A DNA stretch of 64,000 bases, from sequence record OQ067374.1. One strand, given 5' to 3'. Positions 2,467 to 64,000 of this stretch are shown in pieces. Source of the DNA: Escherichia phage a20. Within the stretch, counting starts at the first letter, position 1. Each line of letters begins with the position of its first letter. The translations under genes were made by a program, and so were the position numbers. The notes under the pieces were generated by a model. It saw only the letters and a program-made list of their open reading frames with translations, was not told where the DNA came from and did no database searches.

Positions 2467-2582
2467 TTTAAATTCTCAATTCGAGATAATATTTAGTAGC
2501 CACGTTCGTCTGAATTTCACTTCCTTTCGACAAGTCTCTCAGTTGTAGGCTACCGCTTAGAAGAGTGTTCTCTTCATATAGT

Positions 2583-2590
2583 TATTTATA
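2583..2590 (-). promoter_or_regulatory. late promoter TATAAATA
   Basis: exact TATAAATA on minus strand between gene 31 stop and rIII. Confidence 0.5.
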
Positions 2591-2923
2591 TCACTTATAA
2601 AGACACGGAATAGCTTTATAGTGGCATGTTACGAATTTCTGTTTAATTTCTTTAGGTTGTTTAAGTCCCAAAGCCACAAATGGATGTGGAACATTTCGAA
2701 TTTGTCCAACTGGTAGTGGAGTCAAATCACCGACTTCAACAAAACCTTTAGGAACATCAGGACCTACAGAATGAACTACACATAGTTCAGGAACTTCACC
2801 TTGAACACGTTTACCAATCACAAGTCCTGATTCGGTAACTTCTTCATCACCTGCTTGAGCGGGTTCAGAAACCAGAATGACATATTCACCAACGGCACGA
2901 ATTGGGAGTTGTACTTCAGACAT
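2591..2923 (-). CDS. 31: gp31 co-chaperonin (GroES-like)
   Basis: 110 aa, [21 protein letters not shown]... near-identical to T4 gp31. Confidence 0.92.
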
Positions 2924-2980
2924 CTTATTTCCTTGTTGTTTAACGATAGATTAATAATACCATACTATTCGTAAAGCATA

Positions 2981-3277
2981 TTACATAAGAAGCAAACGTT
3001 CTACCGGAGTACCATCAACCGAAATTACTTTATCAAGGCGGAAAGAACGCCACTGACCTAACTCGGTATCGAATGCTCGAACTGATTCACGAGGTTCAGA
3101 ACGAACTTCTGTTGATGGGTTACTATTTTCATATTTGACTTCAAGTTCATCGCGGGAGGCAAACATCGTACGAACATCACCGTTAGCCTTTTCAAACACA
3201 ACACAATGAACGCCTACAGACAGAATAGTTTTAATACGTTCACGAAGAACCATAGTTTCTTGTTCAGTTAAAATCAT
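2981..3277 (-). CDS. hypothetical protein (31.1/31.2 position); ATG start at 3277
   Basis: track ORF begins at GTG; ATG 3 nt after cd stop (TAATATG). Confidence 0.5.
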   Translation of the reverse strand: MILTEQETMVLRERIKTILSVGVHCVVFEKANGDVRTMFASRDELEVKYENSNPSTEVRSEPRESVRAFDTELGQWRSFRLDKVISVDGTPVERLLLM

Positions 3278-3278
3278 A

Positions 3279-3860
3279 TTATTCACCACAAAAGTTTCGA
3301 ATTTGTTCCCAATTCAGAGAACGAAGATTATTACGAGAGTACTGAATTACTTCAATACCGGCTTGTTTTAGAATGTCTGCCCAATTTTCAGGAGATCGGT
3401 CATATAATTCTGCATATACAACCTTTTTAATACCTGACTGTGTAATAGCTTTAGTGCAATCAGGGCACGGAGAAAGCGTAGTATATAACGTAGCACCTTC
3501 AATAGAATTACCTTTACGAGCTGCAAACAAAATTGCATTCAATTCCGCATGGATTTCGTTATTAGCAGACCATGCACTATGAGCGGCCCGATGTTCTTTA
3601 GCCAAAACAAAATTATCCACCCGTCCAAATGCTGTAGTGCCTTCTTTATGCCCAGCAACGATGACCGGGCTTGGTTTATTCTTCAACCAACCGTTTTCGG
3701 ATGCATGTTCGCAACAGTTTGTACCACCTGAAGGAGAGCCATTATAACCTGTAGAAATAATGCGCCCATCTTTTTCAATGACGGCACCAACTTTCCATGA
3801 ACAACATTTTGATTCTTGAGAAATCAGATATGCAATCTGAAGGTATGTGCTAGCTTTCAT
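3279..3860 (-). CDS. cd: dCMP deaminase
   Basis: 193 aa; zinc-deaminase motifs (CAE, PCxxC) and match to T4 Cd. Confidence 0.9.
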   Translation of the reverse strand: MKASTYLQIAYLISQESKCCSWKVGAVIEKDGRIISTGYNGSPSGGTNCCEHASENGWLKNKPSPVIVAGHKEGTTAFGRVDNFVLAKEHRAAHSAWSANNEIHAELNAILFAARKGNSIEGATLYTTLSPCPDCTKAITQSGIKKVVYAELYDRSPENWADILKQAGIEVIQYSRNNLRSLNWEQIRNFCGE

Positions 3861-12727: not shown

Positions 12728-12750
12728 ATTATAATCAAAAGTCTTAAAGC
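12728..12750 (-). promoter_or_regulatory. putative MotA-dependent middle promoter for nrdB
   Basis: minus strand GCTTTA-N11-TATAAT; Mot box overlaps nrdA stop. Confidence 0.4.
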
Positions 12751-15008
12751 TTACAAGCAGAACAATCTTCAGCTTTAGGTGTTTCTAATTCATAGTCATC
12801 TGTACCTGACCCATCACGAGTGTTATGATAGTAGAGGTTTTTTCCGCCAAAGTACCAGAAGTAAAGCAGATCGTCAAGCATTACTGACATTGGCACTTTA
12901 CCTTTCTCAAATACTGCAGGGTCATAGTAAGTATTAGCAGAAGCAGATTGGCACACCCATTTCAACATGATAGCAACTTGGGTCAAATAAGGTTTATTAC
13001 CTTTCTTAGCAAGTTTCCACGCATAATCGTAAAGACTCATGTTATGTTCGATATTAGGAACAACCTGACGGAAGTTGCCTTCTTTAGATTCTTTAATACT
13101 TACTGGACCACGTGGGGGCTCAATCCCGTTTGTAGAGTTTGATACTTGACTGCTTGACTCACAAGGCATGAGTGCAGACAACGTTGAGTTACGAATTCCA
13201 TGTTCTTTGAGTTCAGCTCGAAGTTCTTCCCAGTCACATACGTAGTTCGGGGCTGCGATTTGGTCAATCTTTTTATTGTACCAGTCGATAGGTAATTCGC
13301 CTCTAGACCATTTAGTGTCTGAATAATACTCGCAACATCCTTTTTCTTTGGCGAGTTTGATTGATGCTTTGATAAGGCCATATTGCAATCTCTCAAACAA
13401 TTCATGAGTCAAATCGTTAGCGTCTTCATATGAAGCAAAGTTAGAAGCTAACCATGCAGCATAGTTCGTAACACCAACACCAAGATTACGACGCTTTTTA
13501 GCTTTTAAAGCTTCTGGAACCGGATAATCCTGATAGTCTAACAGGTTATCAAGTGCACGTACTTGTACTTCAGCAAGTTCATTAATTTTATCTTGGTCTT
13601 GCCAATCAAATTTATCCAATACAAAAGCAGATAATGTGCATAAACCAATTTCAGCATCAGGACCATTCACATCATTAGTTGGAATAGCGATTTCACAACA
13701 TAAGTTACTCTGACGAATTGGAGCTTTTTCACGAATAAACGGAGTGTAGTTATTCGTGTTATCAACAAACTGTGGATAAATTCGAGCAGTACCAGAACGT
13801 TCAGTCATGAACAATTCAAAGAGTTCTAGTGCTTTGATTCTTTTCTTTCTGATTGTTGGGTCTTTTTCAGCTTTCTCATAAAGCTCACGGAATTTATCTT
13901 GATCTTCAAAGAATGAGTAATATAGTTCGCCTGACATTTCGTGAGGGCTAAATAAAGTAATATAATCATTTTTACCAAGGCGTTCCATCATAAGGTCATT
14001 AATCTGAATTCCGTAGTCCATATGTCGAATACGGTTTTCATCCACGCCTTTGTTATTTTTCAGAACTAATAGGTTCTCTACTTCTAAGTGCCACATCGGA
14101 TAATACGCTGTAGCAGCACCACCACGAATACCACCTTGAGAACAAGATTTTACTGCAGTTTGGAAATGTTTCCAGAATGGAATAACACCCGTATGTCGAA
14201 CTTCACCCATACCGATCTTAGAACCTTCTGCACGAAGCATACCAACGTTGATACCAATACCAGCTCGTTTAGAAATATATTCAATAATTGATGCTGAAGT
14301 TTTGTTAATAGATTTTAACGAATCACCGGCTTCAATAACTACACAACTAGAGAACTGGCGAGTCGGAGTACGAGCACCTGCCATAATTGGAGTAGGCAAT
14401 GAAACTTGATGAGTAGAAACGGCGTCATAAAAACGAATAATATGTTTCAAACGGTCATGAGTTTCGTCTTGGTGTAAGGCCATGCCAATAGCCATGATAG
14501 CAAACTGTGGAGTTTCATAAATCTTCCCGGTTGTTTTATCTTTAACTAGATATTTTTCTTTAAGCTGCATAGCACCAGCATAAGTCAGGTCAAAGTCTCG
14601 TTCATGTTTAATCTGTGAATCGAGATAAATGATTTCTTCTGCTGAATATTGAGACAACAGCTCAGGGTCATATTTGCCTTCATTAACACAATAAGAAATA
14701 TGGTCGATAAAAGCAGGCGGTTCAAACTGCCCATATACATCTTTACGAAGTGCAAACATTAGCCCTTTGGCGGCGACATACTGATAATCAGGTTCTTCGA
14801 CAGAAATCGAGTTAGCTGCAACTTTAATACAAATCTTCTGGATATCTTTGGTGCTCATCCCATCGACAAGATGGGTCTTAATTTCTTCGTACAATTCATA
14901 TGGGTCAATTTGTGTTCCTTCACATTGCCAAGTTAAGACTTGAATAATTTTCTGTGCATCAAAATTTTGGGATACACCTGAATTTTTCACTACTTTAAAA
15001 TTATACAT
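12744..15008 (-). CDS. nrdA: ribonucleotide reductase alpha subunit
   Basis: 754 aa, class Ia RNR large subunit; same length as T4 NrdA. Confidence 0.92.
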   Translation of the reverse strand: MYNFKVVKNSGVSQNFDAQKIIQVLTWQCEGTQIDPYELYEEIKTHLVDGMSTKDIQKICIKVAANSISVEEPDYQYVAAKGLMFALRKDVYGQFEPPAFIDHISYCVNEGKYDPELLSQYSAEEIIYLDSQIKHERDFDLTYAGAMQLKEKYLVKDKTTGKIYETPQFAIMAIGMALHQDETHDRLKHIIRFYDAVSTHQVSLPTPIMAGARTPTRQFSSCVVIEAGDSLKSINKTSASIIEYISKRAGIGINVGMLRAEGSKIGMGEVRHTGVIPFWKHFQTAVKSCSQGGIRGGAATAYYPMWHLEVENLLVLKNNKGVDENRIRHMDYGIQINDLMMERLGKNDYITLFSPHEMSGELYYSFFEDQDKFRELYEKAEKDPTIRKKRIKALELFELFMTERSGTARIYPQFVDNTNNYTPFIREKAPIRQSNLCCEIAIPTNDVNGPDAEIGLCTLSAFVLDKFDWQDQDKINELAEVQVRALDNLLDYQDYPVPEALKAKKRRNLGVGVTNYAAWLASNFASYEDANDLTHELFERLQYGLIKASIKLAKEKGCCEYYSDTKWSRGELPIDWYNKKIDQIAAPNYVCDWEELRAELKEHGIRNSTLSALMPCESSSQVSNSTNGIEPPRGPVSIKESKEGNFRQVVPNIEHNMSLYDYAWKLAKKGNKPYLTQVAIMLKWVCQSASANTYYDPAVFEKGKVPMSVMLDDLLYFWYFGGKNLYYHNTRDGSGTDDYELETPKAEDCSACKL

Positions 15009-15636
15009 AATAATTCCATGTTGGATAATTTGATGATTTTAGACGGCGTCTAACCGTTTGGGTGCTCATAGATAAAATTATTGACGCTTCATTTAATGTA
15101 TCATATATTACGTCGTTTATAATTACTTTCTTTGCAAATGGATTCTTAGCTCCTATCATAGCATTAGAAATAGCTTGCTTAGTTGATTCTTTTAATGGGA
15201 CTCCTTTAGAAATTTTTGATTTAATTTTTATATTGTATTGTCCACGTTTTTTACCTAATAAAGAATTTCGTATCTTTTCTTTAGTCTCTTCAGATTTAAC
15301 ATGTCCTAGTTTGGAACGAGATATTTTATCTTTTGTTTTTTGGTCTAATTTTCGCCCTTTAAGCAAATCAACCATTTTTGCTCTAGTCCATCCAAATTCT
15401 TTATTATTTCTAGAACTCATTAAATTAACCGCGGTTGCTAAACCTAAATTGTTCGGATATATTTTTAATAAAAGAAGATGAGCCAAATAATGTTCTGAAT
15501 ATGTTAATTTAACTAGATTGTATGACTCATTGGTGCCACCTAAACATTTTGGGATTATATGATGCCATTCACCATCTATATCTTCAAAATTTCTTTCTTT
15601 ATTTACCAAGTTTTTATATATTTTTAAATAATCCAT
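15001..15636 (-). CDS. free-standing HNH homing endonuclease (Mob-like); start moved to ATG 15636
   Basis: HNH motif WHHIIPKCLGGTNESYNLVKLTYSEHYLAH plus NUMOD-like repeats; stop overlaps nrdA start. Confidence 0.7.
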   Translation of the reverse strand: MDYLKIYKNLVNKERNFEDIDGEWHHIIPKCLGGTNESYNLVKLTYSEHYLAHLLLLKIYPNNLGLATAVNLMSSRNNKEFGWTRAKMVDLLKGRKLDQKTKDKISRSKLGHVKSEETKEKIRNSLLGKKRGQYNIKIKSKISKGVPLKESTKQAISNAMIGAKNPFAKKVIINDVIYDTLNEASIILSMSTQTVRRRLKSSNYPTWNYYV

Positions 15637-15687
15637 AGTATAATCCACTTTGTAGTATCAACGGGATAGTATTTATCCCGTTAATTT

Positions 15688-15966: not shown

Positions 15967-16278
15967 TTATACCGCCATTTTAGCTTTGATAGTTGGATGA
16001 GATTCATAATTTTTAAGAACGAAATCAGAATGTGTCATCGTTCCAGTAACCCAGTCCATTTGGATTTTTGTAGGCCAATTCTCAAAATTACTAGGCCAAT
16101 TAATTTCAAGAGAACACAACTCTTTAGGTTCACGACGAAGAACTTCTTTGCATTGTTCTACATGATTGCTGTAGATATGCGTGTTGCCGCCTGAGAACAC
16201 TAAATCACCTGGGATAAGGTTACACATCTTCGCTACAATATGCGTCAAGGCAGCGTACGAGGCAATGTTGAACGGTAG
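15967..16278 (-). CDS. td: thymidylate synthase, exon 2
   Basis: begins LPFNIASYA...; joined with exon 1 gives 286 aa as in T4. Confidence 0.9.
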   Translation of the reverse strand, partial: LPFNIASYAALTHIVAKMCNLIPGDLVFSGGNTHIYSNHVEQCKEVLRREPKELCSLEINWPSNFENWPTKIQMDWVTGTMTHSDFVLKNYESHPTIKAKMAV

Positions 16279-17294
16279 CATTATGTTCAGATAAGGTCGT
16301 TAATCTTATCCCGGAATTATATCCAGCTGCATGTCACCATGCAGAGCAGACTATATCTCCAACTTGTTAAAGCAAGTTGTCTATCGTTTCGAGTCACTTG
16401 ACCCTACTCCCTAAAGGGATAGTCGTTAGGCATTTATGTAGAACCAATTCCACTTATCAGATTTTACACGGTAAGTAACTAATCCTGATGAAATTTCAAA
16501 ATGTCTAGCCGCATCGGCTGCACATTCAAAAATAATCCCATCGCATGAAATCTTTTTGATGTTAGCTGGCTTTTTGCCTTTCATCTTTTCAGATAGTTTA
16601 GTTTTAGTTTTTTCTGAATGTTTGTGATTAAAGAACGGGTTATTTTCACCTGAACGTTTTCGGCACTTTCCACAAGTATCGGCCGAAGATGGTATGCGAA
16701 CACCGCATTTACAAAACTTGTGGTTTTCTGGATTCCATCGGCCATTTTTACTTCCGTGTTTACCATAAAGAGCTTTCCGACCATCAGGACCAAGCTTAAG
16801 CATCTTAGCTTTAACAGTTTCAGCTCGTTTCTTAGCAATTTCTTCTTTTAATGGATGATTTGAAAGCACATCACCAAAAGACGCATCAGCAATATTATAT
16901 CCATTAATTTTAGAATTTAGCTCTTTAATCCAAAAATTTTCTCGTTCAATAATCAAATCTTTCTCATATGGAATTTCTTCCAGTACAGAGCATTCAAAAA
17001 CATTACCATGTTTATTAAAAGACCTTTGAAATTTTATAGAAGAGTGAACACCGTTTTCAAGGTCTTTAAAATGTCTCTTCCATCTTTTCTCAAAATCTTT
17101 AGCACTTCCAACATACACTTTACCGTTTAAAGTGTTTTTAATCTGATAAATTCCGCTTTTCATAAACACCTCTTTTTATATAGAAGTATTTATTAAAGGG
17201 TAGTCCTACAATTTAGCACGGGATTGTCTACTAGAGAGGTCCCCCGTTTAGATAGATTACAAGTATAAGTCACCTTATACCTAGGCCTAAATTA
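16279..17294 (-). mobile_element. group I intron in td (1016 nt) carrying I-TevI
   Basis: 5' end reads UAAUUUAGGCCUAGGUAUAAGGUGACUUAUACUUG..., 3' end ...CAUAAUG; matches T4 td intron length and remembered sequence. Confidence 0.9.
16426..17163 (-). CDS. I-TevI: intron-encoded GIY-YIG homing endonuclease I-TevI
   Basis: 245 aa from ATG 17163; MKSGIYQIKNTLNGKVYVGSAKDFEKRWKRH... near-identical to T4 I-TevI. Confidence 0.92.
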   Translation of the reverse strand: MKSGIYQIKNTLNGKVYVGSAKDFEKRWKRHFKDLENGVHSSIKFQRSFNKHGNVFECSVLEEIPYEKDLIIERENFWIKELNSKINGYNIADASFGDVLSNHPLKEEIAKKRAETVKAKMLKLGPDGRKALYGKHGSKNGRWNPENHKFCKCGVRIPSSADTCGKCRKRSGENNPFFNHKHSEKTKTKLSEKMKGKKPANIKKISCDGIIFECAADAARHFEISSGLVTYRVKSDKWNWFYINA

Positions 17295-18666
<1,372 letters not shown>

Positions 18667-42828: not shown

Positions 42829-43029
42829 TCACAAGTTACGTTTAAAAATTTCTGCTACTTCAAGAAGTTCTTCTTTAGTAGCTGTATCGGTTTGTATTTT
42901 ATATCGAATTTCTTTAAAGCGTTCTTTAAAGGACTCTGCCGACTCGATATCAAAAAATCTTTGGATAAGCCGGAATTCCCGGAGCACTGCTTTATCAAAA
43001 AGTTCCAAGTCCACGTTATATGTTCTCAT
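42829..43029 (-). CDS. hypothetical protein (rIIA.1)
   Basis: 66-aa ORF. Confidence 0.55.
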   Translation of the reverse strand: MRTYNVDLELFDKAVLREFRLIQRFFDIESAESFKERFKEIRYKIQTDTATKEELLEVAEIFKRNL

Positions 43030-43121: not shown

Positions 43122-44222
43122 TTACGCTGTGAAGATTTTATCCCACATCGCAACAACTGCATCTCGGTTATACTTCTTCCATACTGCTTCAGCACGTTTA
43201 ACTCGAGCTTCGTATGTGTCAGTGAATTCTAATACAGCTTTTGTGTAAAGCGCAACTACTTCTTTCTTAGGAGTAGAGGAATCAATTTCTACACGCACAG
43301 TATCTGGGTCGTATTCGAATGTCGCATGAGGATAATCCTTAAAAACTAACTGGATTACAGGGACACCTTTAGAGATGGCTTCAATAGAACTATTCTCTAC
43401 CGTACCTGTGTCAGGACACGTATTAATAAGTGCTTTAGCCGTTTTAAGACGTTCCATGATTTCACTGTGTGGAGCATCAATAATAACAGGATATTTAGCT
43501 GGTGGTGCCCATTTACTAGGACAGTATCCTACACCATTTTCGCCTAGTGCTTTAATCGCTTCAAGAGCAACATCAGTACGACGCATTTTAGTGTCATAAC
43601 GTTGTGCACTAATAATCAGATCAGTCGCCGGAAGAACTTCAGGTTTCTCATTCAAACAAATAACCGGATAATCTTCGGCTTCAAACAACGGATTTGCTCG
43701 CCAATAATCATAATCGATTTTGTCAGTCAGACCTGAAGTCATATAACAATATTTGCGTTCAAATTCACGGAAGGCTTTAGTAGGAGCATAACTCTTACCG
43801 CCATTCTTATGAATTTGAATAGTCTGGTCCCAAATTTGAACAATGCCACGAGATACTGGTTCAAATGGTGTTGCCATAAAATTCTTATGAACTTTAGAGA
43901 GACCTGCGTCTTTAATTGCCTGAACGGTTAGTTTAGTCGGTTCCATAGTAACAACAAAATCGTATTCATGGATGCCGGCTAGTTCAACAATCTTACGAGC
44001 CATAGTATAACTCATACCTAGACTGAATTTAGTCAGATGACCAACAGGATGGTGTGTAACTTTCCAGTCACCAAACATGTCATTATCAAAGCCGATATAA
44101 TCAATATCGGCACCGATAGAAACTAAATATTTCAACACGTTCAAATGAACCGCTTCAAGACCACCTTGTACACGGTCAGGATTAAATGGGACTGCACGAG
44201 ATGGGATAAACATAACTTTCAT
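43122..44222 (-). CDS. putative GT-B fold glycosyltransferase
   Basis: 366 aa; N-terminal MKVMFI...GGLEAV and C-terminal GTVENSSIEAISKGVPVI resemble GT4-type donor-binding motifs; motif-level only. Confidence 0.5.
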   Translation of the reverse strand: MKVMFIPSRAVPFNPDRVQGGLEAVHLNVLKYLVSIGADIDYIGFDNDMFGDWKVTHHPVGHLTKFSLGMSYTMARKIVELAGIHEYDFVVTMEPTKLTVQAIKDAGLSKVHKNFMATPFEPVSRGIVQIWDQTIQIHKNGGKSYAPTKAFREFERKYCYMTSGLTDKIDYDYWRANPLFEAEDYPVICLNEKPEVLPATDLIISAQRYDTKMRRTDVALEAIKALGENGVGYCPSKWAPPAKYPVIIDAPHSEIMERLKTAKALINTCPDTGTVENSSIEAISKGVPVIQLVFKDYPHATFEYDPDTVRVEIDSSTPKKEVVALYTKAVLEFTDTYEARVKRAEAVWKKYNRDAVVAMWDKIFTA

Positions 44223-44250
44223 AATTAAGCCTTATTAAAATTAAAATGAA

Positions 44251-44266
44251 GCTCCCGAAGGAGCTT
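44251..44266 (-). other. UUCG-tetraloop hairpin between HNH gene and glycosyltransferase gene
   Basis: agctcccgaaggagct overlapping HNH stop codon. Confidence 0.45.
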
Positions 44267-45062
44267 AGGACATCCAACACATTTTATAACCTTTGCAGGT
44301 TCTGTTAGGATTATTTAATGCTTTCAATATATTAGAAGACCCTATATCTAAATACTCTCTTAATTCATAAAGATAGTTAAAATCAATAGTTTCACCTGTT
44401 TTTACACTTGTGATTCTTATAGGCCTTCTTTCATATTTAGATTTATACAACTCTCTAGTCTTAGCTTTAGTTTCTTCCGACCTAGGAGTGTATGGTTTAA
44501 ATCCTTTTGTTTTAAATGTTTCCATTCTTGATTTAGTTATTTTATCCTGGTGTTCTTTTGTTTTTACAGGTGCTTTTCGCCCATTCTCCCAAGATAACTT
44601 GTTGGCCTGTATTATTTTATCTATTGCTTCTTGCGTATGAGTTTTACCATAAAATGGATTTAATTCGCCTATACGTTGTGAAGCAATATGTGACATTAAT
44701 TCTCTTGTTGCTTTAGTATGTTTTTTACCTTTAAATGGGTTGCCGTTTTTAGCAATCCATTCTTTCATAAATCTAGAGTGCTCTTTAGAGAATTCTTGTT
44801 TAAGCCAATCATAATCTCTAGAATTTCTAGCTCCCATGTAAAAAGCTCTAATAGCCATAAGCATAGAACGGTTCTTATGAATTTTATAAAGCAATAAATG
44901 GGCGATAAAATGCTCTCTAGGGGTCATTTTAACTAGATTTGATTTATCATTACTCCCACCCATAGATTTTGGCAATATATGATGTGTCTCAGTATAATTA
45001 GGAATAATGCTGCGGTTTTTAGCCGCAGCGATAAGTTTATCATAAATTTTACGATAATTCAT
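44265..45062 (-). CDS. free-standing HNH homing endonuclease (MobA-like); start at ATG 45062
   Basis: HNH motif ETHHILPKSMGGSNDKSNLVKMTPREHFIAH with NUMOD-like repeats; ATG overlaps gene 39 stop. Confidence 0.7.
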   Translation of the reverse strand: MNYRKIYDKLIAAAKNRSIIPNYTETHHILPKSMGGSNDKSNLVKMTPREHFIAHLLLYKIHKNRSMLMAIRAFYMGARNSRDYDWLKQEFSKEHSRFMKEWIAKNGNPFKGKKHTKATRELMSHIASQRIGELNPFYGKTHTQEAIDKIIQANKLSWENGRKAPVKTKEHQDKITKSRMETFKTKGFKPYTPRSEETKAKTRELYKSKYERRPIRITSVKTGETIDFNYLYELREYLDIGSSNILKALNNPNRTCKGYKMCWMS

Positions 45063-46882
45063 TATCCTAGCATCCAATCTTTACGGAGTTCAGGGTCGTT
45101 ACCCATGAGCATTTCAAATAGTTCTTTCCAATTTTCAGGAAGTTTAACTACGTCGTACACAGGGTTTTGAATCATTTCTTTATATTCATCTCGCTGAAGT
45201 GAGCCCAATCCCTTGATGTATCGAATACTATGCTTAGGCAGTGTATCTTTAGCTTCTTCATACTCAGCTACAGTATAAAACCATTTTTGAGTTTTGCCAA
45301 TTTGTGCAATAATTACAGGCGTTTTAACAAAGCGAATACGTCCTTGTTCAAACAATTCAGGCCAATTACTAAAGAAAGCAAGCAAAGCTGGATAGATACT
45401 TCCAAGACCGTCATGATCGGCATCGGTCATAATTGCAATATTACGATAGTTCGTATTCTCTGCCTTTTCACCAAGAATAAGACCTGTGATAGCACAGATA
45501 TCAAAGAGCTCTTTGTTCTTCATCATATCAGCATATGACATACCCCAGCTATTCATCACCTTACCACGTAATGGGAATCCGCCGTGTAGTTCACGGTCAC
45601 GAACATCAATGAGATAACCAATTGCCGAATCACCTTCTGTTAAAAACAATGTCGTATCTGCATCTTTACCACATTGGTTAGCTTTAATATGCTTATGAAC
45701 CTTAGCTTTAGTTGCCTTTTTAGCTGCTTTAGTTTCTGCAGCCTTTTCTGCCGCCAATTTACGAGCTAATGCTGCTTCAACAATAGGCATAATCAAGGCT
45801 TCGTTTTTAAGAAGTGCCTGAGCAATTTTCTTAGCATCTAATTGGATATGATTACGAATATCACCATACGTTGACGTTAAACGTTCTTTAGTCTGAGAAT
45901 CAAAACGCATGTTGCTCATGTCTCTAATAAACATCAACATTGTGAGACATTCTTTAACACGAGCTTTAGTGACTTCAATACCCTTATATTTCTTTTTAAT
46001 ACCCGGCAAAAGATGTTCACAGATATCATCCATTACACATTCAACATGATGACCACCGTTTTTAGTATGGATGTTATTCACATAAGTTAAATGACGGAAG
46101 CCATCTGGTGATGTTGTGAATGCTATAGAGACTTTATCATTTTCTTGAATGATGTTATCTTCACCAAATTGTTTAGCAAATCGTTTAAAATTACCATCAA
46201 CCTTTTTACCATTAAATGTGAACTTGATATCAGGATAAACGACTGCCAATGTTTGAAGTCGGTCTAAAGTAATATCTAAATAAATTTGAGATAAATTATG
46301 CTCTTCAAATGAAGAGAAATCAGGAGTGAAGATTACTTTAGTGCCTTTACCTTTAGATTTCTTAGAAGACCATGATTTGTTTTCCATTCCGTTTGAACAG
46401 TTAACAGTGATTTCATTTTCGCCATCTGACGTGATGCCTGTAAACAACGTAGAGAAGATATTAGTTAAACTACTCCCGACGCCGTTCATACCACCAGTCT
46501 TGCGTTCAGAGTCATCACCAAAGTTACCACCAGCCTTTGGAATAGTCCAGGCTGCTACAGGCCCAGGAATTTGTTCACCTGTTTGGTCGGTAACTAAACC
46601 TTGAGGAATACCACGTCCGTTATCTTCCACCGAAACTTGATTATTTTTAATTTGCACATCAATTTTATTTGCAAACTTAAATGATGTACGAATAGCTTCA
46701 TCAACCGAGTTGTCAATAATCTCATCGATTAATTTAACCAGACCAGGAACATATTCAACTTGTTGATATTTACCAAACAAAAAACGCTCGTGTGCTTCTT
46801 TAGCCGAAGAACCAATATACATACCACTACGTTTCTTAATATGTTCTACATCTGACAATACCTTAATTTCATTTTTAATCAT
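45062..46882 (-). CDS. 39: DNA topoisomerase II large subunit, unsplit 39+60
   Basis: 606-aa continuous ORF with GyrB-like ATPase and Toprim regions. Confidence 0.88.
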   Translation of the reverse strand: MIKNEIKVLSDVEHIKKRSGMYIGSSAKEAHERFLFGKYQQVEYVPGLVKLIDEIIDNSVDEAIRTSFKFANKIDVQIKNNQVSVEDNGRGIPQGLVTDQTGEQIPGPVAAWTIPKAGGNFGDDSERKTGGMNGVGSSLTNIFSTLFTGITSDGENEITVNCSNGMENKSWSSKKSKGKGTKVIFTPDFSSFEEHNLSQIYLDITLDRLQTLAVVYPDIKFTFNGKKVDGNFKRFAKQFGEDNIIQENDKVSIAFTTSPDGFRHLTYVNNIHTKNGGHHVECVMDDICEHLLPGIKKKYKGIEVTKARVKECLTMLMFIRDMSNMRFDSQTKERLTSTYGDIRNHIQLDAKKIAQALLKNEALIMPIVEAALARKLAAEKAAETKAAKKATKAKVHKHIKANQCGKDADTTLFLTEGDSAIGYLIDVRDRELHGGFPLRGKVMNSWGMSYADMMKNKELFDICAITGLILGEKAENTNYRNIAIMTDADHDGLGSIYPALLAFFSNWPELFEQGRIRFVKTPVIIAQIGKTQKWFYTVAEYEEAKDTLPKHSIRYIKGLGSLQRDEYKEMIQNPVYDVVKLPENWKELFEMLMGNDPELRKDWMLG

Positions 46883-63440: not shown

Positions 63441-63782
63441 TTAAAAGAATTTAAATTTTTTCTTGGTTCGTTCATTAAAAGCTTGTTGTACTTGCATTGT
63501 AACACATTTTTCAACATGTGGTGCAAGTTCTGCTTTTCTGTCCTGGTCAAGAACTGCAAAGTCCATTACGATTTTACCATCAACCCAGTCTAGTTTTGTA
63601 ATATAGACTATATGATGGGAACCGTCTTCAAGTGTAATCAGAATCTCTTGAATGACATTTTCCATTGCTGAACGGATAATTTTAAGAGATTCATTAAACA
63701 CTCGTTCTTTGCGAATGTCTTCCCCTTCCGAAGAAGGGGATTCATCAACGATTTCTAGATTTAAATCATCGAGATTATTCAT
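63441..63782 (-). CDS. 40: gp40 head-assembly protein; start at ATG 63782
   Basis: position between uvsX and 41; track ORF starts at TTG; ATG overlaps uvsX stop. Confidence 0.6.
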   Translation of the reverse strand: MNNLDDLNLEIVDESPSSEGEDIRKERVFNESLKIIRSAMENVIQEILITLEDGSHHIVYITKLDWVDGKIVMDFAVLDQDRKAELAPHVEKCVTMQVQQAFNERTKKKFKFF

Positions 63783-64000
63783 CGAAATCTTCCATTTCGT
63801 CAAGGTCGTTTTCTATATCTGCTGCAGACGGAGCATCAGAAGTTTTAACCGGAACTTTAGTTGTTGCTTTGCAATTAATAAGGTCATTAACAGCGTCATC
63901 AACTTCTTTAATAGAAGAGATAGCACCTAGTTTATATTTAGTTTCAATTGCATCTCGGAAAGGTTTGTGTTTAAACAAAGGTCCCCAGAATTCTACACAA
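63775..64000 (-). CDS. uvsX: UvsX recombinase, C-terminal fragment (5' end beyond window)
   Basis: ORF ends with acidic tail ...DLDEMEDFDE. Confidence 0.75.
   Translation of the reverse strand, partial: CVEFWGPLFKHKPFRDAIETKYKLGAISSIKEVDDAVNDLINCKATTKVPVKTSDAPSAADIENDLDEMEDFDE

Follow-up and report, generated by a model that had tools for sequence, protein, structure and literature searches.

The rIIA.1 to gene 39 junction of Escherichia phage a20 holds a gene for a proposed DNA arabinosyltransferase of the RB69 gp3 type and a separately mobile HNH homing endonuclease gene

Results and discussion

Organization of the locus

The window analysed here is a stretch of 64,000 nucleotides from Escherichia phage a20 (OQ067374.1). 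Between rIIA.1 and gene 39 it carries a gene for a 366-aa glycosyltransferase and a gene for a Mob-type HNH homing endonuclease (Table 1). The genes rIIA and rIIA.1 lie downstream of the transferase gene, and a fused gene 39 lies upstream of the HNH gene. An earlier sequence-only reading of the window had placed both open reading frames at this junction, in agreement with the ORF list, and had named gene 60 and mobA as the T4 content of the corresponding junction; the T4 record does show genes 60, 60.1 and mobA there.

The transferase ORF begins MKVMFIPSRAVPFNPDRVQGGLEAV and includes GTVENSSIEAISKGVPVI. The HNH ORF is listed as 44265..45077 from a TTG start, and the ATG at 45062 yields the 265-aa protein considered here. 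A terminator-like hairpin is located just past the HNH stop codon and upstream of the transferase start. It carries a terminator annotation in related phages and is the ancestral gene-39 terminator. In a sigma-70 promoter scan the signal was no better than in shuffled sequence.

Table 1. Features at the rIIA.1 to gene 39 junction of phage a20, with positions in the window
Feature	Position	Strand	Remarks
rIIA.1, downstream neighbour of the transferase gene	42829..43029	-	Pfam T4_RIIA1, E=2e-30
GT-B glycosyltransferase gene, 366 aa	43122..44222	-	Ortholog of RB69 ORF003c/gp3 and HY126 glycosyltransferase
Segment ~99-100% identical in vB_EcoM_F1	44174..45430	.	Background identity ~70-80%
Terminator-like hairpin, AAGCTCCTTCGGGAGCTT then CATTTT	44249..44266	-	Same sequence and position in RB69
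Mob-type HNH homing endonuclease gene, free-standing, 265 aa, NUMOD3 motifs	44265..45062	-	
Insertion of 800 bp vs RB69-type genomes	44277..45076	.	BLAST break points vs RB69 and junction alignment
Fused topoisomerase II large-subunit gene 39 (60plus39 type), 606 aa	45062..46882	-	
Diverged patch, final ~140 nt of gene 39	45062..45202	-	

Identity and distribution of the transferase

The 366-aa protein was used as tblastn query against 50,697 phage records. Phage NHEP10 encodes the identical protein (100%), and RB69ORF003c (gp3, NP_861693) shares 98.9% identity with the query. Copies with at least 95% identity were found in ~155 Escherichia and Shigella Mosigvirus records, and full-length homologs with ~42% identity in 55 Acinetobacter phage records, there as two copies per genome. 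The gp3 family as a whole comprises 211 records and is restricted to Mosigvirus, with one copy, and the Acinetobacter phages, with two. This conservation, together with the family matches of the HNH protein to phrog_655 and NUMOD3 described below, makes it untenable that either ORF is a chance reading frame. In RB69 the transferase gene is, as in a20, located between rIIA.1 and the fused gene 39. Both RB69 and NHEP10 have matching neighbours, with the transferase directly abutting gene 60plus39. The Bas47 ortholog was annotated "putative hmC-arabinosyltransferase" in GenBank in 2021. A comparison with the arabinosyl-hmC transferase candidates of other T4-like phages had been proposed from the sequence, and the protein proved to be that very candidate, RB69 ORF003c (PMC6024577).

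Named protein families were of little help. Pfam and NCBIfam gave no match to the 366-aa protein, even at E=1, and in PHROGs only the unannotated family phrog_8302 matched. When eight family homologs were scanned against Pfam, none reached the cut-off; weak sub-threshold GT4-conflict matches were obtained with two of them (P0010, E=0.0028; P0006, E=0.066). A word-indexed search of 5.8 billion proteins returned 5 clusters for the family and a profile search returned 10, and an exhaustive phmmer search of 1.84 billion representatives identified only ~10 true members. The latter search also gave a weak bridge, P0018 (E=5e-5), which itself passes Pfam Glycos_transf_1 and aligns with transferase residues 248-352 at 35% identity, spanning the E281-A-I-S-K-G-V-P helix. 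With no match to a named family, some ten homologs and a single weak bridge, the transferase therefore cannot be placed by sequence alone; its fold and the literature do place it.

Fold and GT4-like features

A profile search of PDB sequences had 9IQZ/9IR0 as its sole match, 99% identical with four substitutions. Foldseek identified 9IQZ as "phage HY126 glycosyltransferase" and 9IR0 as the same protein "with UDP", both released on 2025-07-16. The HY126 work is reportedly that of He et al., Nat Chem Biol 2026; a full-text literature search for the codes 9IQZ and 9IR0 retrieved unrelated chemistry papers only. Both RB69 gp3 and the HY126 protein (9IQZ apo, 9IR0 with UDP) have 366 aa, as in a20, with 99% identity and TM-scores of 0.95-0.97, and the a20 protein differs from the RB69/HY126 protein by four amino-acid substitutions. 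By analogy with this 99% identical protein, and given the title of entry 9IR0, the a20 transferase probably binds a UDP donor.

The AlphaFold2 model of the transferase, for which an alignment of 11 sequences was used as input, has a pLDDT of 90.8 and a pTM of 0.87. The protein consists of two Rossmann-like domains, with C-terminal helices that cross back to the N-terminal domain, which corresponds to the GT-B architecture. The nearest folds to the model are those of the GT4 enzymes PimA, BshA, MshA and WaaG, at 10-15% identity. With these enzymes, as well as sucrose-phosphate synthase, the transferase shares the GT-B fold of two Rossmann domains, the N-terminal GG loop, an Arg/Arg pair that opens the C-terminal domain and the ribose-binding Glu in an E-A-x-S-x-G-V-P helix.

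The family alignment shows no variation at G20/G21 and little or none at R208, R214, E276 and E281. Hence both the glycine-rich loop after the first strand and the ribose-binding Glu of the C-terminal E-A-x-x-x-G-x-P-V helix are present in the transferase; that Glu, the nearly invariant E281, aligns together with its helix with the Glycos_transf_1 protein P0018. In the same alignment the GT4 EX7E motif is incomplete: the first Glu is replaced by T272/G273, and the family has an invariant E276 instead. Since the first EX7E Glu is missing and the curated HMMs remain unmatched, the protein is a divergent GT4-like GT-B glycosyltransferase rather than a textbook member. Besides the low identity and the lacking Glu, its proposed acceptor, DNA, sets it apart from the GT4 enzymes mentioned.

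The assignment to a GT4-type GT-B fold, made from the letters alone, thus agrees with a solved near-identical structure, with the AlphaFold2 model and with the GT4 fold neighbours, and the motifs on which it was based, around G20/G21 and E281, are genuine GT4-like features. A prediction lacking the GT-B fold had been named as the outcome that would overturn it; because both the near-identical solved structure and the model have that fold, the assignment stands. The 366-aa gene is the known gene gp3/ORF003c of Mosigvirus phages, whose product is the proposed DNA arabinosyltransferase. It is real but not new, given that it has already been published under these names and that a near-identical PDB structure exists.

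The HNH homing endonuclease gene and its insertion

The HNH protein hits the "homing endonuclease" family phrog_655 with E=2.6e-57 and exceeds the cut-off of Pfam NUMOD3 (E=5e-9); HNH models match it weakly, with E=0.002-0.009, below their cut-offs. The first 45 residues show 55.6% identity to the T4 mobA remnant, which bears out the earlier description as a Mob-like HNH endonuclease. As in T4 MobA and MobE, an N-terminal HNH domain is followed by NUMOD3 repeats. Further features shared with the Mob family are the start at the gene-39 stop codon, the presence/absence polymorphism and the co-conversion tract. Whereas T4 mobA interrupts the topoisomerase gene, which is thereby divided into 39 and 60, the a20 gene is intact and occupies the very 3' end of an undivided gene 39, of which it re-uses the last codons and the stop.

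According to the junction alignments, the 800-bp insertion is bordered by a 6-bp direct repeat, TGGATG. The HNH ATG overlaps the new gene-39 stop codon (TAATG), and the HNH ORF ends with TGG ATG TCC TAA, which corresponds to the ancestral last codons and stop of gene 39, with the ancestral terminator hairpin next to it. Full-length copies of the HNH gene were found by megablast in 27 of the 164 matching records; the remaining records, RB69 included, match a 54-nt flank only. Between transferase and gene 39, a20 has an HNH gene where RB69, NHEP10 and Bas47 have none.

The insertion is accompanied by a local change in gene 39. Its last 140 nt show ~30 differences between HNH-carrying and HNH-less Mosigviruses, and HNH-carrying genomes from two genera have one and the same patch sequence. 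The rest of the gene has 0-4 differences per 60 nt in comparison with NHEP10 and Bas47; the same 0-4 per 60 nt holds for RB69, except at the 5' end, where 24 further differences are found in RB69 alone. Judged from these comparisons, the patch looks like it was imported with the endonuclease gene, and it may include the endonuclease's target region. As an 800-bp unit, the gene has entered the topoisomerase gene at its final codons, and it would spread alone, HNH-less alleles being cleaved and then repaired by recombination. The HNH gene is an ordinary selfish Mob-type homing endonuclease gene, separate from the transferase.

Elsewhere in the window, further homing endonuclease genes are found: one for a Mob-like HNH protein at 15001..15648 and a GIY-YIG ORF at 16426..17169.

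The arabinosylation cluster and the place of gp3

Arabinose was detected in RB69 DNA by Thomas et al. in 2018, and ORF003c was then picked as the likely RB69 arabinosyltransferase by means of custom HMMs, HHpred and Phyre2 (PMC6024577). More recently, Lee et al. (NAR 2026) described RB69 DNA as containing mono- and di-arabinosylated 5-hydroxycytosine rather than hmC. They ascribe the hydroxylated base to a ThyA homolog, propose RB69 gp46:47, encoded within the arabinose gene cluster, as first transferase, and list gp3 as a proposed, unconfirmed "beta-arabinosyltransferase 2" (PMC13326640). The same study reports that gp76 and gp77 of Acinetobacter phage DLP3 jointly put a third arabinose on RB69 DNA in vitro, using UDP-Araf, and that the single transferases have no activity alone and are inactive on 5-hydroxycytosine DNA (PMC13326640). 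In 2025-26, 5-hydroxycytosine was reported as the base and a second-arabinose role was proposed for gp3 (PMC13326640, PMC13390438). For Bas46 and Bas47, double arabinosylation is mentioned in PMC12923530.

The distribution of the two transferase types was compared. The core cluster, RB69 gp45-48, is present with at least 95% identity in ~153 records, as compared to ~155 with gp3. The cluster transferase (the RB69 gp47 half) was found by tblastn in 348 phage records from many genera, which include JS98-like coliphages, phages of Klebsiella, Enterobacter, Edwardsiella, Serratia and Proteus, and the mono-pentosylated Shewanella phage Thanatos. Among the matches listed it is annotated beside a ThyA homolog. 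Since gp3-type genes occur in 211 records from two phage groups, as against 348 records from many genera, they are an accessory layer. For phages with 0, 1 or 2 gp3-family copies, the DNA is reported to be mono- (Thanatos), di- (RB69, NP, Bas46/47) or tri-arabinosylated (DLP3), respectively.

DLP3 gp77 and gp76 (ADLP2_047 and ADLP2_048 in DLP2) are full-length homologs with 42-43% identity in which the invariant residues of the a20 transferase are conserved. They use UDP-Araf on arabinosylated 5-hydroxycytosine DNA, a trait that by analogy is proposed for a20 gp3 as well. DLP2 has the closest Acinetobacter homolog and its paralog side by side within the arabinosylation cluster. DLP3, with two paralogs in the cluster, is tri-arabinosylated, whereas Mosigvirus has a single gp3 copy ~20 kb from the cluster and is di-arabinosylated. 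The window stops in gene 40, just before the position of the RB69 cluster, and from its relatives a20 is expected to carry the cluster.

The most likely function of gp3 in a20 is the addition of the second arabinose, a role deduced from homologs and gene distribution. The cluster-encoded transferase (RB69 gp46:47) would install the first arabinose on 5-hydroxycytosine. The 366-aa gp3 enzyme would then take UDP-arabinofuranose and add a second arabinose to arabinosyl-5-hydroxycytosine, and the resulting di-arabinosylated cytosine would shield the genome from host nucleases. We put a probability of roughly 0.8 on the combined reading, in which gp3 is a GT4-like DNA transferase for the second arabinose and the HNH gene encodes a functionally unrelated, independently spreading homing endonuclease.

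An alternative to the T4 alpha- and beta-glucosyltransferases that puts another sugar on phage DNA had been suggested for the 366-aa protein, and this idea is supported. No sequence homology to either T4 enzyme was detectable in the a20 transferase; the T4 genes have another map position, and their products combine glucose with hydroxymethylcytosine rather than arabinofuranose with 5-hydroxycytosine. The suggestion that hydroxymethylcytosine would carry a different sugar holds in part: the sugar is indeed different, namely arabinose, but the base is now described as 5-hydroxycytosine (PMC13326640, PMC13390438).

Alternative explanations

Two other roles for the transferase have to be weighed against addition of the second arabinose. 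It could be the primary transferase, linking the initial arabinose straight to the modified cytosine, which was the original HMM- and HHpred-based proposal for ORF003c in 2018 (PMC6024577). The inactivity of the isolated DLP3 transferases on 5-hydroxycytosine DNA speaks for this, in that the assignment of the first step is itself provisional. Nevertheless, in arabinosylating lineages it is a different GT-B gene that adjoins the 5-hydroxy-dCMP synthase, and this includes phages that have the cluster transferase without any gp3, such as Thanatos and the JS98-like, Klebsiella, Enterobacter and Serratia phages. Moreover, reported chain lengths of 1, 2 and 3 go with 0, 1 and 2 gp3-family copies, and the gp3 homologs DLP3 gp76 and gp77 lengthen the chain on DNA that carries arabinose beforehand, which together makes a primary role for gp3 improbable. 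A sugar transfer to something other than DNA, be it a component of the host envelope, a protein or a small molecule, had also been considered, and the closest structural neighbours, PimA, BshA, MshA and WaaG, do use lipids, small molecules or polysaccharides. This likeness is at the level of the fold, with 10-15% identity, whereas true gp3 homologs occur solely in phages whose DNA is arabinosylated, those of Acinetobacter phages are located within the DNA-modification cluster, and gp3 homologs modify DNA in vitro. A non-DNA substrate was rejected on account of this distribution and of the in vitro activity of the homologs, and we consider it hardly credible.

The linked endonuclease had further been taken to suggest that both genes form a mobile cassette, that is, that transferase and HNH gene move jointly between phage genomes. 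They are adjacent, and the endonuclease-centred tract found in Tequatrovirus F1 reaches 49 nt into the start of the transferase ORF, so flanking DNA can travel along. Yet the HNH gene is missing from the transferase locus in some 137 of the 164 related records, among them those of RB69, NHEP10 and Bas47, and F1, FN and fPS-90 possess the HNH gene but no functional transferase. The bounds of the 800-bp insertion fall precisely within gene 39, the GC content of the HNH segment is ~0.31 as opposed to 0.39-0.40 for the transferase, and other, independent homing endonuclease genes occur within the 64-kb window. The cassette idea was rejected in view of the independent distribution, the exact insertion bounds and the distinct GC content; joint movement is very unlikely. 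The transferase gene, present in essentially all Mosigviruses, is fixed in that genus, and the endonuclease gene, which 27 of the 164 records contain, moves independently. A shared cassette is not supported, with RB69 lacking the HNH gene and a Tequatrovirus having it with only 49 nt of the transferase.

Transfer into T4-like phages

The HNH element is shared by two Tequatroviruses, vB_EcoM_F1 and FN, and by fPS-90, a phage of Yersinia. As far as T4 nucleotide 2494, the F1 genome follows T4 with 98.3% identity; from there it is ~99-100% identical to the a20 window from 44174 to ~45430, a tract of 1.26 kb, after which identity falls to 70-80%. Of the transferase ORF, this tract contains only the initial 49 nt, which are fused to the final 37 nt of T4 gene 60. 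From its boundaries, the segment is best read as a co-conversion tract centred on the HNH gene.

It was thought that a recombination barrier isolates RB69-type phages. We tentatively suggest, as a scenario that we consider rather doubtful, that the homing endonuclease carried Mosigvirus DNA, with the 49-nt transferase start, into F1, FN and fPS-90 and so breached this barrier. Our search of the literature, of partial coverage, found no earlier description of such endonuclease-driven transfer between genera. This putative transfer centred on the endonuclease, with a transferase fossil left in T4-like phages, is the only mildly new item of the locus.

Conclusions

With its transferase gene the a20 window adds one more near-identical copy to what was already established for RB69, HY126, Bas46/47 and NP. 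If the scenario of transfer between genera is true, endonuclease-driven repair would cross the barrier that separates phages with arabinosyl-5-hydroxycytosine from those with glucosyl-hydroxymethylcytosine, and the chain-extending transferase itself could in principle pass between lineages. Cytosine arabinosylation decides which host defences, among them restriction enzymes, CRISPR-Cas, type IV nucleases and DNA glycosylases, are evaded or triggered by a therapeutic T4-like phage, and it is the chain-extending transferase that determines whether the phage DNA carries one sugar or two.

Arabinosylation genes

In RB69 the arabinosylation cluster, comprising the genes for a nucleotide kinase, the first transferase and 5-hydroxy-dCMP synthase together with UDP-arabinose genes, starts beyond uvsX, about 1.3 kb past the point matching the window end. 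Since the window stops in gene 40, short of that start, the remaining pathway would lie just outside it. The annotation of the RB69 first transferase as two ORFs (046c and 047c) was ascribed to a sequencing error (NAR 2026, PMC13326640). Homologs of this transferase were identified in 348 phage records from many genera, a distribution far wider than that of the family of gp3, the proposed second DNA arabinosyltransferase.

Coordinates of the features discussed, in the window unless a phage locus is named
Feature	Coordinates	Strand	Size
Ribonucleotide-reductase-like ORF	12744-15008		754 aa
Second Mob-like HNH ORF	15001-15648	-	215 aa
Putative intron-interrupted td gene	15967-17169	-	
Thymidylate synthase C-terminal-like ORF	15967-16281	-	104 aa
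GIY-YIG endonuclease-like ORF	16426-17169	-	247 aa
HNH gene	44265-45062	-	
Cross-genus patch	44174-45430 = vB_EcoM_F1 locus (L003) 2473-3730		~1.26 kb
Topoisomerase II large subunit (gene 39, fused 60plus39 type)	45062-46882	-	606 aa
Diverged gene 39 end	45062-45202		last ~140 nt
Gene 40, at window end	63441-64000		
RB69 first-transferase gene	RB69 locus (L005) 17598-18498		

Other endonuclease-like ORFs

The second Mob-like HNH ORF, directly upstream of the ribonucleotide-reductase-like ORF, shows 34% identity to the first HNH gene across about 145 residues. The GIY-YIG ORF adjoins an ORF resembling the C-terminal part of thymidylate synthase, which suggests a td gene interrupted by an intron with an I-TevI-like endonuclease.

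Evidence for exchange around the HNH gene

Whereas T4 has split genes 39 and 60 and a 50-nt translational bypass, the window carries a single fused gene without either. Its last 140 nt or so differ from Mosigviruses lacking the HNH gene at about 30 positions, and the encoded C-terminus reads ...GNDPELRKDWMLG as compared to ...GDDSELRKEWMS in the latter. The same end sequence occurs across HNH-carrying genomes from two genera. The diverged end is probably an import that accompanied the endonuclease gene, and it is a candidate for a target region resistant to cleavage.

The cross-genus patch is approximately 100% identical between this Mosigvirus window and vB_EcoM_F1, a T4-like Tequatrovirus with 98.3% identity to T4 as far as T4 nt 2494. 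The terminator and the HNH gene both lie within it, along with the opening 49 nt of the arabinosyltransferase ORF and some 370 nt from the 3' end of gene 39. In vB_EcoM_F1 the patch is fused to the final 37 nt of T4 gene 60. Such a patch speaks for an exchange of DNA, centred on the endonuclease, between phages whose DNA modifications differ.
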